Sequence record: PZ452578.1
Length of the DNA: 64,000 nt
DNA from: a phage
Strand: one strand, 5' to 3'
In this document: piece after piece, positions 39,195 to 62,513 of the stretch
How positions within the stretch are numbered: position 1 is the first letter of the stretch
Layout: the number at the start of each line of letters is the position of its first letter
The notes under the pieces: model-generated
Seen by the model: only the letters and a program-made list of their open reading frames with translations
Database searches by the model: none
What the model was told of the DNA's origin: nothing
Made by a program: the position numbers and the translations under genes

Positions 39195-40782
<1,588 letters not shown>

Positions 40783-55860: not shown

Positions 55861-56976
55861 ATGGAAAAATTTATGGCAAAGTTTGGACAAGGATATGTCC
55901 AAACGCCATTTTTATCGGAAAGTAATTCAGTAAGATATAAAATAAGCATAGCGGGTTCTTGCCCGCTTTCTACAGCAGGACCATATGTCAAATTTCAGGA
56001 TAATCCTATTGGAAGTCAAACATTTAGCACAGGACTTCATTTAAGAGTTTTTGACCCTTCTACAGGAGCATTAGTTGATAGTAAGTCATATGCTTTTTCG
56101 ACTTCAAATGATACTACATCAGCTGCTTTTGTTAGTTTCATGAATTCTTTTTCAAACAACAGACTTGTTGCTATATTAACAAGTGGAAAGGTTAATTTTC
56201 CTCCTGAGGTAGTATCTTGGCTAAGATCCGCGGGAACGTCTGCTTTTCCATCTGATTCTATATTGTCAAGATTTGACGTATCATATGCTGCCTTTTATAC
56301 TTCTTCTAAAAGAGCTATTGCATTAGAACATGTTAAACTAAGTAATAGAAAAAGCACAGATGATTATCAAACTATTTTAGATGTTGTATTTGATAGTTTA
56401 GAAGACGTTGGAGCTACCGGGTTTCCAAGAAGAACGTATGAAAGCGTTGAGCAATTTATGTCAGCGGTTGGTGGAACTAATAACGAAATTGCACGTTTAC
56501 CAACTTCATCCGCGATAAGTAAATTATCTGATTATAATTTAATTCCTGGCGATGTTCTTTATCTTAAAGCGCAGCTATATGCTGATGCCGATTTACTTGC
56601 GCTTGGAACTACAAATATATCTATCCGTTTTTATGATGAATCGAATGGATATATTTCTTCAACACATGCTGAGTTTACTGGACAAGCTGAGTCATGGGAA
56701 TTAAAGGAAGACTATGTAGTTGTTCCTGAAAATGCAGTAGGATTTACGATATATGCACAAAGAACTGCACAAGCAGGTCAAGGTGGCATGAGGAATTTAA
56801 GTTTTTCTGAAGTATCAAGAAATGGCGGAATTTCAAAACCTGCAGAATTTGGCGTCAATGGTATTCGAGTTAATTATGTCTGTGAATCTGCTTCACCTCC
56901 AGATATAATGGTACTTCCTACACAAGCATCGTCTAAAACTGGTAAAGTGTTTGGACAAGAATTTAGAGAAGTTTAA
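55861..56976 (+). CDS. 35: Long tail fibre hinge connector gp35
   Basis: 371 aa versus 372 in T4; synteny 34-35-36-37. Confidence 0.88.
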   Translation: MEKFMAKFGQGYVQTPFLSESNSVRYKISIAGSCPLSTAGPYVKFQDNPIGSQTFSTGLHLRVFDPSTGALVDSKSYAFSTSNDTTSAAFVSFMNSFSNNRLVAILTSGKVNFPPEVVSWLRSAGTSAFPSDSILSRFDVSYAAFYTSSKRAIALEHVKLSNRKSTDDYQTILDVVFDSLEDVGATGFPRRTYESVEQFMSAVGGTNNEIARLPTSSAISKLSDYNLIPGDVLYLKAQLYADADLLALGTTNISIRFYDESNGYISSTHAEFTGQAESWELKEDYVVVPENAVGFTIYAQRTAQAGQGGMRNLSFSEVSRNGGISKPAEFGVNGIRVNYVCESASPPDIMVLPTQASSKTGKVFGQEFREV

Positions 56977-57007: not shown

Positions 57008-57015
57008 TATAAATA
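57008..57015 (+). promoter_or_regulatory. T4-type late promoter TATAAATA for gene 36
   Basis: Exact octamer 24 nt upstream of the ATG at 57039. Confidence 0.65.
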
Positions 57016-57703: not shown

Positions 57704-60700
57704 ATGGCTACTTTAAAACAAATACAATTTAAAAGAAGCAAAACTGCAGGAGCACGTCCTGCCGCTTCAGTATTAGCCGAAGGTGAATTGGCTATAAACT
57801 TAAAAGACCGTGTACTTTTTACTAAAGATGACCAAGGAAATATTATTGATTTAGGTTTTGCTAAAGGCGGTAGCATTGACGGGAATGTTATTCATAAAGG
57901 CAATTATAACCAAACTGGTGATTATACTTTAAATGGCACATTCACTCAGACAGGTAATTTTAATTTAACTGGTATTGCTCGAGTAACTCGTGATATTATT
58001 GCCGCCGGGCAGATTATGACTGAAGGCGGAGAACTTATTACAAAAAGTTCAGGTACAGCGCATGTTCGTTTTTTCGATGGCAATAGTCGCGAACGTGGAA
58101 TCATTTATGCCCCGGCTAATGACGGTTTAACTACACAAGTACTTAATATCAGGGTTCAAGACTATGCCGCTGGTAGCGAAAGCACTTATGCATTTTCAGG
58201 CAGTGGCCTATTTACTTCACCTGAAGTATCAGCATGGAAATCTATTTCGTCTCCACAAATTCTGACCGACAAAGTCATTACAGACGGGAAGAAGGCAGGC
58301 GATTATGACATCTATTCATTAGCAAATAACACCCCATTATCTGAAAGCACTACTGCTATTAATCATCTTCGTGTCATGCGTAATGCAGTCGGTTCTGGTA
58401 TTTTCCATGAAGTTAAAGATAATGATGGGATAACCTGGTATGCCGGTGACGGGTTGGAGGCTTATCTTTGGTCGTTTACGTGGTCCGGTGGGTTGAAAGC
58501 GGGTCATTCTATTTCTATAGGTACCCCAGGCGGTCCAAAAGGATATTCTGAATTAGGAACGGCCTCAATTGTTCTTGGGGATAATGATACCGGATTTAAA
58601 TGGCATCAGGACGGATATTATTTCAGCGTTAATAATGGAACAAAAACGTTTTTATTTAGTCCCAGCGAAACAACTAGCCTAAGAAAATTTGTAGCTGGAT
58701 ATTCTACTAATGGAACCGATTTAACTACTCCTCCAACTGAAAATTATGCTCTTGCTACTGTCGTGACATATCACGATAATAACGCGTTTGGAGATGGCCA
58801 GACTCTTTTAGGATATTATCAAGGCGGTAATTATCATCATTATTTCCGCGGTAAGGGTACCACAAACATTAATACTCATGGCGGTTTGTTAGTTACTCCA
58901 GGTAATATTGATGTTATTGGCGGTTCTGTTAATATTGATGGTATAAATAATGCTTCTACCCTGCTATTTAGAGGCAACACAACTGGTAGTAGTTCAGTTG
59001 ATAATATGACAATTTCCGTTTGGGGCAATACGTTTACTAATCCTAGTGTAGGTAATCGTAAAAACGTCATGGAAATTTCTGATGCAACTAGTTGGATGAG
59101 CTATATTCAAAGACTTACAACAGGTGAAGTAGAAATGAACGTTAATGGTTCATTTGAATCATCTGGTGTTACTGCTGGAAATAGAGGAGTTCACACAACA
59201 GGCGAAATTTCATCTGGTGCAGTGAATGCGCTTCGCATTTGGAATGCAGATTATGGAGCCATTTTTAGACGTTCAGAAGGTAGTCTTCATATTATTCCAA
59301 CTGCTTACGGTGAAGGTAAACACGGCGATATCGGTCCACTTCGCCCATTTAGTATGGCTTTAGATACTGGTAAAGTTACTATTCCAGATTTACAATCAAG
59401 TTACAATACGTTCGCTGCTAACGGTTATATTAAATTTGTTGGTCATGGAGCGGGTGCCGGCGGTTATGACATTCAATATGTTCAAGCGGCTCCTATTTTC
59501 CAGGAAATCGATGATGATGCTGTAAGCAAATATTATCCTATTGTTAAACAGAAGTTTCTAAACGGTAAATCCGTTTGGTCTTTAGGTACTGAAATTAATT
59601 CAGGTACATTCGTTATTCATCATCTGAAAGAAGATGGTTCACAAGGCCATACGTCTCGTTTTAATCAAGACGGTACTGTTAACTTCCCAGATAACGTTCA
59701 GGTCGGCGGCGGTGAAGCTACTATTGCTCGTAATGGTAATATTTTCTCAGATATTTGGAAACCGTTTACTTCTGCCGGTGATACTACAAATATTCGCGAT
59801 GCTATTGCGACTCGTGTTTCGAAAGAAGGCGACACGATGACCGGTAAGTTGATTATTAGAAGAGATTCTGACGCTATTAACTTAGCTGCGCCTTCGACAA
59901 CTGATGCAAGTTACCTTCTTTCTACAGGAGCTGGTGAAAATCTATGGTATATTGGTAAAGGCGGCGCTGATAATACTGTATCATTCTACAACTATAAAAC
60001 CAGTGGGGCTGTGCAAATTAACTCTATTGGTGAAATCGCGCTGATTCCACAAGGTGCTGCAACATTTAACTTCAACCGCGATCGTCTCTATATAAATGGG
60101 TCTCAATGGACTGCACATCAAGCTGGTGACTGGGTTAACCAATGGCGTCAAGAAGCTCCTATATTTGTGGATTTTGGTAGTGTCGGCAATGACTGCTATT
60201 ATCCTATTATTAAAGGAAAATCTGTTATTACGAATGAAGGATACGTATCTGGTGTTGATTTCGGTATGCGCCGTATCACTAACCAATGGGCTCAGGCTAT
60301 TATTCGTGTTGGTAACCAGGAAAATGCTAGCGATCCGCAAGCTATCTTCGAATTCCACCATAATGGAAACATGTACGTTCCTGACATGGTTAAAGCTGGA
60401 GTAAGATTATCAGCTGGTGGAGGTGACCCTGCATGGACAGGCGCATGTGTTGTTATTGGTGATAATGACACTGGGTTAGTTCATGGCGGTGACGGTCGTA
60501 TTAACATGGTTGCAAATGGAGTGCATATTGCTTCATGGTCGGCCGCTTACCATCTCCATGAAGGTCTTTGGGATACCACTGGTGCTTTGTGGACTGAACA
60601 AGGAAGAGCTATTATTTCTTTTGGTCATTTAGTCCAACAAAGCGATGCCTATTCCACATTTGTCCGCGATGTTTATGTCCGTTCTGATATTCGTGTTAAA

Positions 60701-61018
60701 AAAGACCTTGTTAAATTTGAAAATGCTTCTGAGAAGCTTTCTAAAATTAACGGTTACACTTATATGCAGAAGCGAGGCCTAGATGAAGAAGGCAATCAGA
60801 AATGGGAACCTAACGCCGGTTTGATAGCTCAAGAAGTTCAAGCTATTTTGCCTGAATTAGTTGAAGGTGACCCTGATGGCGAAGCTTTACTTCGTTTGAA
60901 CTATAACGGTGTAATTGGTTTAAATACAGCTGCAATCAATGAGCATACTGCAGAAATTGCGGAACTTAAATCAGAAATTGAAGAACTTAAAGCATTAGTT
61001 AAATCATTGTTAAAATAA
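57704..61018 (+). CDS. 37: Long tail fibre distal subunit gp37 with C-terminal chaperone-like domain
   Basis: 1104 aa; N-terminus [46 protein letters not shown] typical of gp37; C-terminal 115 aa resembles self-cleaving intramolecular chaperone domains and ends in a coiled-coil-like stretch. Confidence 0.9.
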
Positions 61019-61023
61019 TAAGA

Positions 61024-61037
61024 GGGGCTTCGGCCCC
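61024..61037 (+). other. GC hairpin between genes 37 and 38, no U-tract
   Basis: GGGGC-TTCG-GCCCC followed by TTGGAGG (the gene 38 RBS); may be an RNA stability or processing element rather than a terminator. Confidence 0.5.
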
Positions 61038-61049
61038 TTGGAGGTTTAT

Positions 61050-61826
61050 ATGGCAGTAACAGGACCGTGGGTAGGATCGTCTGCAGTAGTTAATACAGGA
61101 CAAAATTGGATGGGTGGCGCGGCCCAACGATTAAGAATGGGTGCTCCATTTTGGATGAGTAATATGATAGGTCGATCTGTTGAAATAATTCACACGCTTG
61201 GAGCAGACCATAACTTCAATGGTCAATGGTTCCGAGATAGATGTTTTGAGGCAGGTAGTGCACCTATAGTGTTTAATATCACTGGAGATTTAGTATCATA
61301 TTCTAAAGATGTTCCTTTATTCTTCATGTATGGAGATACACCGAATGAATATGTTCAGTTGAATATACACGGCGTAACGATGTATGGACGTGGCGGTAAT
61401 GGCGGTAGCAATAGTCCTGGTTCAGCTGGGGGTCATTGTATTCAAAATGATATTGGTGGGAGACTAAGAATTAATAATGGCGGAGCTATTGCTGGAGGTG
61501 GCGGTGGCGGCGGCGGCGGATATTATTCTCCTTTTTCACGAATGAGATTGACTTTTGGCGGGGGCGGCGGGCGTCCGTTTGGCGCACCGGGCGGATCTAT
61601 TGATATGCAATCAGGAGCAACTGCTGGTACTATTTCTGCGCCTGGCGCAGGGTCTGTGAACGGTATCTATAGCGGCGGTGGCGGTGGCGAAGTTGGCTCC
61701 GCAGGAGGTAGATGTAATATTCGTGGTCAAGGATCTGAATACGACGGCGGAGCTGCTGGTTATGCCGTCATAGGGTCTACACCGACATGGCAAAACGTTG
61801 GAGCAATATATGGTCCAAGAGTATAA
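61050..61826 (+). CDS. 38: Receptor-recognising adhesin gp38 (T2-type, glycine-rich)
   Basis: ORF track starts at a TTG; the ATG at 61050 has a GGAGG RBS and gives 258 aa; C-terminal half has several Gly runs (GGGGGGGG, GGGGG, GGGGG) separated by short variable segments. Confidence 0.85.
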
Positions 61827-61856: not shown

Positions 61857-62513
61857 ATGGCAGCACCTAGAATATCATTTTCGCCCTCTGATATTCTGTT
61901 GGGTGTTCTAGATCGCTTGTTCAAAGATAACGCTACCGGGAAGGTTCTTGCTTCCCGAGTAGCTGTCGTAATTCTTTTATTTATGATGGCGATTGTTTGG
62001 TATAGGGGAGATAGTTTCTTTGAGTACTATAAGCAATCAAAGTATGAAACATACAGTGAAATTATTGAAAAGGAAAGAAATGCACGCTTTGAATCTGTCG
62101 CCCTGGAACAACTCCAGATAGTTCATATATCATCTGAGGCAGACTTTAGTGCGGTGTATTCTTTCCGCCCTAAAAACTTAAACTATTTTGTTGATATTAT
62201 AGCATACGAAGGAAAATTACCTTCAACAATAAGTGAAAAATCACTTGGAGGATATCCTGTTGATAAAACTATGGATGAATATACAGTTCATTTAAATGGA
62301 CGTCATTATTATTCCAACTCAAAATTTGCTTTTTTACCAACTAAAAAGCCTACTCCCGAAATAAACTACATGTACAGTTGTCCATATTTTAATTTGGATA
62401 ATATCTATGCTGGAACGATAACCATGTACTGGTATAGAAATGATCATATAAGTAATGACCGCCTTGAATCAATATGTGCTCAGGCGGCCAGAATATTAGG
62501 AAGGGCTAAATAA
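61857..62513 (+). CDS. t: Holin t
   Basis: 218 aa, T4 T holin length; single N-terminal transmembrane segment; downstream of 38. Confidence 0.9.
   Translation: MAAPRISFSPSDILLGVLDRLFKDNATGKVLASRVAVVILLFMMAIVWYRGDSFFEYYKQSKYETYSEIIEKERNARFESVALEQLQIVHISSEADFSAVYSFRPKNLNYFVDIIAYEGKLPSTISEKSLGGYPVDKTMDEYTVHLNGRHYYSNSKFAFLPTKKPTPEINYMYSCPYFNLDNIYAGTITMYWYRNDHISNDRLESICAQAARILGRAK

Follow-up and report, generated by a model that had tools for sequence, protein, structure and literature searches.

Gene 38 of a Tequatrovirus of the RB27 lineage encodes a T6/RB27-type tail fiber adhesin with conserved glycine motifs, variable loops, and predicted Tsx specificity

Location and Genomic Context of Gene 38

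We analyzed a 64,000-nucleotide stretch of phage DNA (PZ452578.1), hereafter the window. Its long tail fiber region contains the following features around gene 38:

57704–61018, + strand: gene 37, long tail fiber distal subunit of 1104 aa, the attachment partner of gp38 (Pfam)
60683–61018: gp37 residues 994–1104, Peptidase_S74 end region
61022–61037, + strand: hairpin GGGGC-UUCG-GCCCC between the g37 stop codon (61016–61018) and the Shine–Dalgarno sequence of g38, fold energy −14.1 kcal/mol
61050–61826, + strand: gene 38, receptor-recognizing adhesin gp38, 258 aa plus stop (ORF, Pfam, and PDB sequence matches)
61857–62513: T holin gene t, the next gene after g38

The open reading frame of gp38 comprises 258 codons from ATG at 61050 to TAA at 61824–61826 and is preceded by the Shine–Dalgarno sequence GGAGG (61040–61044). 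A longer frame starting from TTG at 61038, as proposed by the ORF finder, was rejected: the Shine–Dalgarno sequence falls inside this extension, and none of the homologues uses it, all of them beginning with MAV. Genes for gp35 and gp36 are located upstream of g37, and the resulting order, g35-g36-g37-g38-t-asiA, is the same in phage RB27. Since positions 40000–64000 of the window are 97.8% identical to RB27 across 98% of their length, the source of the DNA was assigned to Tequatrovirus, RB27 lineage.

A T4 late-promoter motif, TATAAATA, occurs at 57008–57015, 24 nt upstream of the g36 start (57039); no such motif was found directly upstream of g38, which suggests co-transcription of g36, g37, and g38. 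Residues 58–127 of the proximal hinge connector gp35 (55861–56976) match the Pfam ILEI “interleukin-like EMT inducer” domain (PF15711; E 5.5e-8, 33.6 bits with a cut-off of 27).

The hairpin at the g37/g38 junction is kept in RB5, RB14, and PST (GGGGG...CCCCC) as well as in T2 and T4, with differing stem and loop sequences. Its energy did not differ significantly from that of shuffled sequences (z-score −1.68), so we take the hairpin as real because of its conservation across phages and not from its energy alone. Its presence even in T4, the g38 of which encodes an unrelated chaperone, suggests that its function, in stabilizing the mRNA or coupling translation, is conserved.

Family Assignment and Predicted Fold

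Two Pfam models cover almost the whole protein, both far above the cut-off of 25 bits: Gp38_N (PF21721) in residues 1–40 (E 2e-21, 76.2 bits, profile 1–40 of 40) and GP38 adhesin (PF05268) in residues 45–258 (E 1e-70, 238.5 bits, profile 1–218 of 218). The protein also matches PHROG 2056, “tail fiber protein; host specificity” (E 2e-109). Searches of PDB sequences retrieved the receptor-binding domain of PP01 gp38 (9V85, E 1.6e-80) and, aligned end to end, S16 gp38 from the gp37–gp38 tip complex (6F45_D, E 3.3e-52).

An AlphaFold2 model, built as a single chain on 90 homologues, had a mean pLDDT of 88.2 and a pTM of 0.80, with most of the receptor-binding domain above 90 and the glycine motifs at 93–98. 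The 10-residue blocks of this domain with the lowest pLDDT were 161–170 (80; loop B) and 221–230 (83; loop E). In a Foldseek search against the PDB, only 9V85 (E 3.5e-26) and 6F45_D (E 5.4e-22) were found with a probability of 1.00, the next match having an E value of 2.6. Superposition on 9V85 gave a TM score of 0.88 normalized to the target and an rmsd of 2.3 Å over 222 columns. The modelled fold is thus that of 6F45 and 9V85, a beta-helix followed by a polyglycine-II (PGII) sandwich whose loops lie at the distal end, with the PGII assignment based on the Foldseek superposition scores. Together with the order of motifs described below and the position directly downstream of g37, these matches place the protein among the T2/T6-type gp38 adhesins, as the preliminary description had proposed from the sequence alone.

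That description had also named alignment with the T4-type gp38 chaperones as the observation that would speak against an adhesin. T4 gp38 is not a component of the virion, and a note in the T4 record says the same. A protein of this kind would act as an assembly chaperone of gp37, and receptor recognition would lie in the gp37 tip. T4 g38 occupies the same slot between g37 and t, behind the same kind of hairpin, and several records annotate T2-type gp38 as “distal long tail fiber assembly catalyst”. However, T4 gp38 is a protein of 183 aa without detectable similarity to that of the window (BLASTP against NC_000866: E = 1.9, 5/12 identities) and has no Pfam family of its own, whereas the Pfam, PHROG, PDB-sequence, and fold matches of the window protein all lead to the adhesin family. 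In addition, the gp37 of the window has a Peptidase_S74 intramolecular chaperone at its C-terminus and does not resemble the T4 gp37 tip. A T4-type chaperone is therefore ruled out at the level of sequence and fold, and we consider this reading of the gene extremely improbable.

Glycine Runs

Glycine accounts for 63 of the 258 residues of gp38 (24%), but its share rises from 12% in residues 1–113 to 34% (49/145) in residues 114–258. Three long runs were located in the C-terminal half, in addition to eight GG doublets:

61494–61520, + strand: nine-glycine run, residues 149–157
61557–61571, + strand: five-glycine run, residues 170–174
61674–61688, + strand: five-glycine run, residues 209–213

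The alternation of glycine runs with non-glycine segments, noticed at the outset, is thereby borne out with exact coordinates. In 10,000 shuffles of the protein’s own residues, the longest run averaged 3.6 glycines, a run of at least nine appeared with a probability of about 1e-4, and at least three runs of at least four glycines appeared with P = 0.019. GG doublets were no more numerous than expected from the same shuffles (P = 0.51). The shuffles indicate that clustering of glycine into long runs exceeds what composition alone gives. The runs are encoded by mixed codons (GGA, GGT, GGC, and GGG) and are therefore not simple DNA repeats.

The runs differ in their conservation among homologues. 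An uninterrupted five-glycine run at 209–213 is restricted to the subgroup of RB27, RB5, NiC89, and the window, while T6 and most relatives read GGNGG (T6) or GGSGG. The run in the second glycine motif (GRM2) varies from five to nine residues, and that in GRM3 is invariant. The DNA of GRM2 (61494–61520) includes a GGC x4 stretch, at which in-frame slippage could be favored.

Scaffold Motifs and Variable Segments

The protein was divided according to the scheme of five GRMs and four variable segments (HVSs) of Trojet et al. 2011 (PMC3157838), also found in PMC12032242 and bioRxiv 10.64898/2026.04.02.716166. The five GRMs were found in the fixed order, with the four HVSs between them and the conserved C-terminal motif at the end. 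Column entropies (window numbering) were calculated from an alignment of 126 distinct full-length homologues, consisting of 120 cluster representatives plus named phages; loops A–E of the PP01 crystal structure (PMC12892980) were mapped by pairwise alignment. The parts of gp38 are as follows:

61050–61184, + strand: N-terminal attachment module, residues 1–45; PF21721 covers 1–40
61185–61385, + strand: beta-helix part of the receptor-binding domain, residues 46–112; 0.74 bits; pLDDT 81–97, beta strands; aligned to the PP01 beta-helix domain (PMC12892980)
61386–61406, + strand: GRM1 (GRGGNGG), residues 113–119; 0.30 bits; G113, R114, G115, G116, and G118 invariant in 90 sequences
61407–61427, + strand: variable part of HVS1, residues 120–126; 1.74 bits; insertion site in 36% of homologues; PP01 loop A corresponds to window residues 119–123
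61428–61493, + strand: conserved core, residues 127–148; 0.54 bits
61494–61520, + strand: GRM2 (nine-glycine run), residues 149–157; 0.50 bits
61521–61556, + strand: HVS2, residues 158–169; 2.29 bits, the highest value; 18 allele types; PP01 loop B corresponds to 161–168
61557–61583, + strand: GRM3 (GGGGGRPFG), residues 170–178; 0.12 bits; G170–G174, P176, and G178 invariant
61584–61673, + strand: HVS3, residues 179–208; 1.54 bits; PP01 loops C and D correspond to 182–187 and 203–207
61674–61709, + strand: GRM4, residues 209–220; 0.96 bits; G210, G212, G213, G216, and G219 at least 90% conserved
61710–61745, + strand: HVS4, residues 221–232; 2.03 bits; PP01 loop E corresponds to 223–230
61746–61823, + strand: GRM5 (residues 233–242) and C-terminal strand motif (243–258); 0.76 and 0.95 bits

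Mean column entropy was 0.57 bits in the GRMs and 1.81 bits in the HVSs (126 homologues, Mann–Whitney p = 7e-12), and no indels were seen among the homologues outside the HVSs and the N-terminus; in 83% of the homologues, extra residues follow residue 204, within HVS3. The preliminary description, which took the glycine motifs for a scaffold and the segments between them for variable, agrees well with these values. Residues 127–148 are placed inside HVS1 by some published schemes, yet they are highly conserved, with G127, G128, I131, N133, I135, G136, R138, L139, I141, N143, G145, and I147 invariant. In the C-terminal motif P245, W247, G251, I253, Y254, and G255 are at least 90% conserved.

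Alternatively, the glycine runs might form a linker with no defined structure that is of low complexity, disordered, or prone to slippage, and might alternate with the other segments only by coincidence. The extreme composition of residues 114–258, the GGC stretch, and the varying length of GRM2 are what such a linker would lead one to expect. Nevertheless, the glycine columns are invariant over 90–126 homologues despite synonymous codon differences, the model assigns high confidence to the glycine motifs, and it fits onto crystal structures whose corresponding motifs are packed as a PGII lattice (PMC12892980). The ratio pN/pS is only 0.034 in the GRMs and core, and GRM deletions in T6 were not recoverable (PMC3157838). 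We therefore give this explanation virtually no weight, and the glycine motifs are treated below as a structured scaffold.

One T6-like homologue from outside the window (P0008; 238 aa, 29.5-kb Logan contig) has GRM2 joined straight to GRM3, HVS2 being absent. Because viable HVS2 deletions of T6 were not recovered by Trojet et al., this gene either carries a deletion that is tolerated in nature or is an artefact of assembly.

Predicted Receptor

Identities of named gp38 proteins to the window protein were calculated region by region. In the C-terminal domain (residues 113–258) they were as follows:

RB27, NiC89, RB5: 99%; Tsx reported for RB27 and RB5
PD112: 98%
Bas36: 96%; left out as a receptor-labelled reference
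RB14, FL23: 95%; Tsx
T6: 94%; Tsx
FL18: 73%; OmpA
M1: 70%; OmpA
PP01: 55%; OmpC
FL08, AV119: 54%; OmpA type 1
T2: 49%; FadL/OmpF

Use of Tsx by RB5, RB14, RB27, and other T6-like adhesins was reported by Trojet et al. 2011 (PMC3157838), and FL23 and FL44 are Tsx-dependent according to Lutz et al. (PMC12032242). The HVS allele combination of the window (H1 0, H2 2, H3 1, H4 2) is the T6-like set of four alleles; among the kept sequences, combinations containing it were (0,0,2,1,2), found four times, and (1,0,2,1,2), found five times.

As judged by sequence, the specificity domain is of the T6/RB27 type and not of the T2 type (99% vs. 49% identity). The initial label “T2-type” holds for the adhesin family, which is of the T2/T6 kind, but not for the specificity domain. 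Since residues 113–258 are 99% identical to the same region of the RB27 and RB5 adhesins, for which Tsx dependence has been reported, we predict that the phage uses Tsx, a nucleoside channel of E. coli, as its primary receptor. Binding of Tsx by the window variant, which we infer from this near-identity, is the best-supported prediction.

Modularity, Recombination, and Substitution Pattern

The N-terminal module and the specificity domain form two separate cassettes among the phages compared. Identity of the N-module to that of the window is 93–100% in phages with an RB27/PP01-type gp37 (80% in PP01 itself) and 55–60% in those with a T6/RB5-type gp37. The N allele of the window is 98–100% identical to those of P0001, P0007, P0010, and FL08, the C-terminal domains of which are 89%, 77%, 72%, and 54% identical, respectively; RB5 gp38 combines a C-terminal domain 99% identical to that of the window with an N allele of 57%.

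The C-terminus of gp37 is common to the window, RB27, NiC89, PD112, FL23, and PP01, while the gp37 proteins of RB5, RB14, and Bas36 are essentially unrelated to that of the window. Compared in 50-aa bins, RB27 gp37 is 96–100% identical to window gp37 throughout, and RB5 gp37 is 84% identical in the first bin and 6–32% beyond residue 50. Apart from this, gp37 is mosaic: residues 701–800 (about 59804–60103) are 44–66% identical to PD112, FL23, and PP01, with flanking bins mostly at 80–100%. In gp38 modelled without gp37, the first 40 residues had a pLDDT of 52–65, as expected if they fold against gp37. As these comparisons show, the N-terminal module follows the gp37 type and is reassorted independently of the specificity domain.

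When the alleles of each HVS were clustered, the two major N types were each found with 6–13 HVS types. In most cases the four HVSs travel together as one linked set, and a minority of proteins are recombinant within the domain: HVS2 type 2, for instance, is paired with type 1 or 2 of HVS3 and with type 0 or 2 of HVS4. Recombination thus mostly moves the whole specificity domain relative to the N-module, single-loop shuffling being less frequent.

Among nine T6-like genes, pN/pS was 0.149 in the HVSs, 0.034 in the GRMs and core, and 0.030 in the beta-helix, with pS values of 0.20, 0.27, and 0.15, respectively. The similar pS of the HVSs and the GRMs with core points to more accepted replacements in the former and not to a raised mutation rate. 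Overall positive selection on the loops was not supported, as the HVS ratio lies below 1 and represents only a 4–5-fold relaxation, or enrichment, relative to the scaffold. The initial suggestion that the loops are hotspots of recombination or mutation therefore stands with refinements: replacements do concentrate in the HVSs and a minority of loop recombinants exists, but there is no sign of a raised mutation rate, and what recombination moves is mostly the whole specificity cassette.

Residue R164 in Loop B

The window g38 is 97.7–97.8% identical to those of RB27 and NiC89 over the whole gene at the nucleotide level, with 18 and 17 differing positions, respectively, most of them synonymous. 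From codon 47 onward, the only amino acid difference from RB27, NiC89, and RB5 is R164 (CGA) in place of Q (CAA), located in HVS2/loop B; two to four further substitutions from RB27 and NiC89 (positions 22, 23, 32, and 46) were found in the first 46 residues. All seven close relatives compared have Q at position 164. The exact window protein was absent from a collection of 15 billion sequences in an exact-sequence look-up. When IMG/VR was scanned with a degenerate nucleotide pattern encoding the R variant, no match was obtained, but a control pattern for the common Q variant had none either, so this search is no measure of rarity.

Residue 164 of the window aligns with T6 residue 167. In the dual-host, Yersinia-infecting phage PST, Q167R is one of three changes separating its adhesin from that of T6 and enabling infection of Y. 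pseudotuberculosis (PMC3157838); the PST genome record reads YYSPFPRIRLTF at this site, confirming Q167R/M168I. A single HVS change can switch the receptor, as with Q206L in RB68, which replaces OmpF by OmpW (bioRxiv 10.64898/2026.04.02.716166), and the specificity of the window gp38 may therefore be altered or broadened. On this reading, Q164R would be an adaptive host-range mutation in the same adhesin, on an RB27-type fiber backbone, broadening or shifting its specificity beyond K-12-type Tsx (for example to Yersinia, to OmpA as in PST, or to a divergent Tsx allele), so that Tsx would not be the sole or main receptor. The substitution is the sole difference from RB27, RB5, and NiC89 in residues 47–258 and repeats the PST change at the same site; moreover, PST HVS2 moved alone into T6 improves plating on Y. 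pseudotuberculosis (PMC3157838), and residues of loop B modulate binding in PP01 (PMC12892980). However, the effect of PST HVS2 involved M168I as well as Q167R, and M is retained in the window; T6 chimeras given the PST changes continued to rely mainly on Tsx in E. coli (PMC3157838). Homologue P0003, otherwise T6-like, has the same arginine, so R164 may be a neutral polymorphism. We consider such a shift away from Tsx unlikely, and R164 may be either a recurrent host-range polymorphism or simply neutral. Tsx remains the receptor that we predict.

Proposed Mode of Action

The C-terminus of gp37 contains the Peptidase_S74 intramolecular chaperone (residues 994–1053), with the motif S-D-I-R-V-K at residue 994. 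By analogy with this domain family and with the processing of T2 gp37, self-cleavage at the S/D motif would remove the last 110 residues of gp37 before gp38 caps the tip. One gp38 monomer would then cap the tip of the trimeric gp37, docking through its N-module (residues 1–45) as in 6F45, a contact to which the co-variation with gp37 noted above lends support here. According to the published structures and genetics, GRM1–5 would pack into a rigid PGII lattice, and HVS1–4, forming loops A–E, would project from its distal end and contact the outer-membrane porin. Loop E is the primary OmpC-contacting loop of PP01 gp38 (PMC12892980); the roles of individual loops in the window protein are inferred from this PP01/OmpC pair, that is, from a different receptor.

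Comparison with Known Adhesins and Significance

RB27 and NiC89 share with the window the gene order, gp37, and the gp38 N-module. RB27, NiC89, and RB5 are identical to the window in GRM1–5, HVS1, HVS3, and HVS4 and differ from it in HVS2 by Q in place of R164, while RB5 carries the other N-module allele and an unrelated gp37. T6 gp38, the archetypal Tsx-binding adhesin, has the same HVS allele set (YYSPF.QMRLTF in HVS2); its N-module is 57% and its residues 46–112 are 85% identical to the window, and it reads GGNGG where the window reads GGGGG (209–213). PP01 gp38 (9V85; PMC12892980) has the same fold, conserved GRMs, and 97% identity in residues 46–112, but all five of its loops differ in sequence and some in length; its receptor is OmpC of O157, whereas Tsx is predicted for the window. 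S16 gp38 (6F45; Dunne et al. 2018), specific for Salmonella OmpC, aligns over residues 1–255 with 44% identity and is built from the same three parts, an attachment domain, a beta-helix, and a PGII sandwich. The whole-chain rmsd of the model to 6F45_D was 6.4 Å, presumably because the N-terminal domain was modelled without gp37.

Taken together, g38 of the window very probably encodes an RB27-related Tequatrovirus adhesin that sits on the gp37 tip and consists of a PGII scaffold with loops, its predicted receptor being Tsx. The architecture of gp38 is already published (Trojet 2011; Dunne 2018), and RB27 gp38 was part of the 2011 comparative study; the window adds only one natural variant with a single loop-B substitution.

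In T2/T6-like phages, gp38 is the main determinant of the outer-membrane porin used. Placing the window protein in the T6/RB27 (Tsx) subgroup therefore yields a prediction of the primary receptor and of how hosts are likely to become resistant, namely by losing or altering tsx. Because their rigid glycine lattice bears loops that can be exchanged and their docking module is separate, such adhesins are attractive for host-range engineering.
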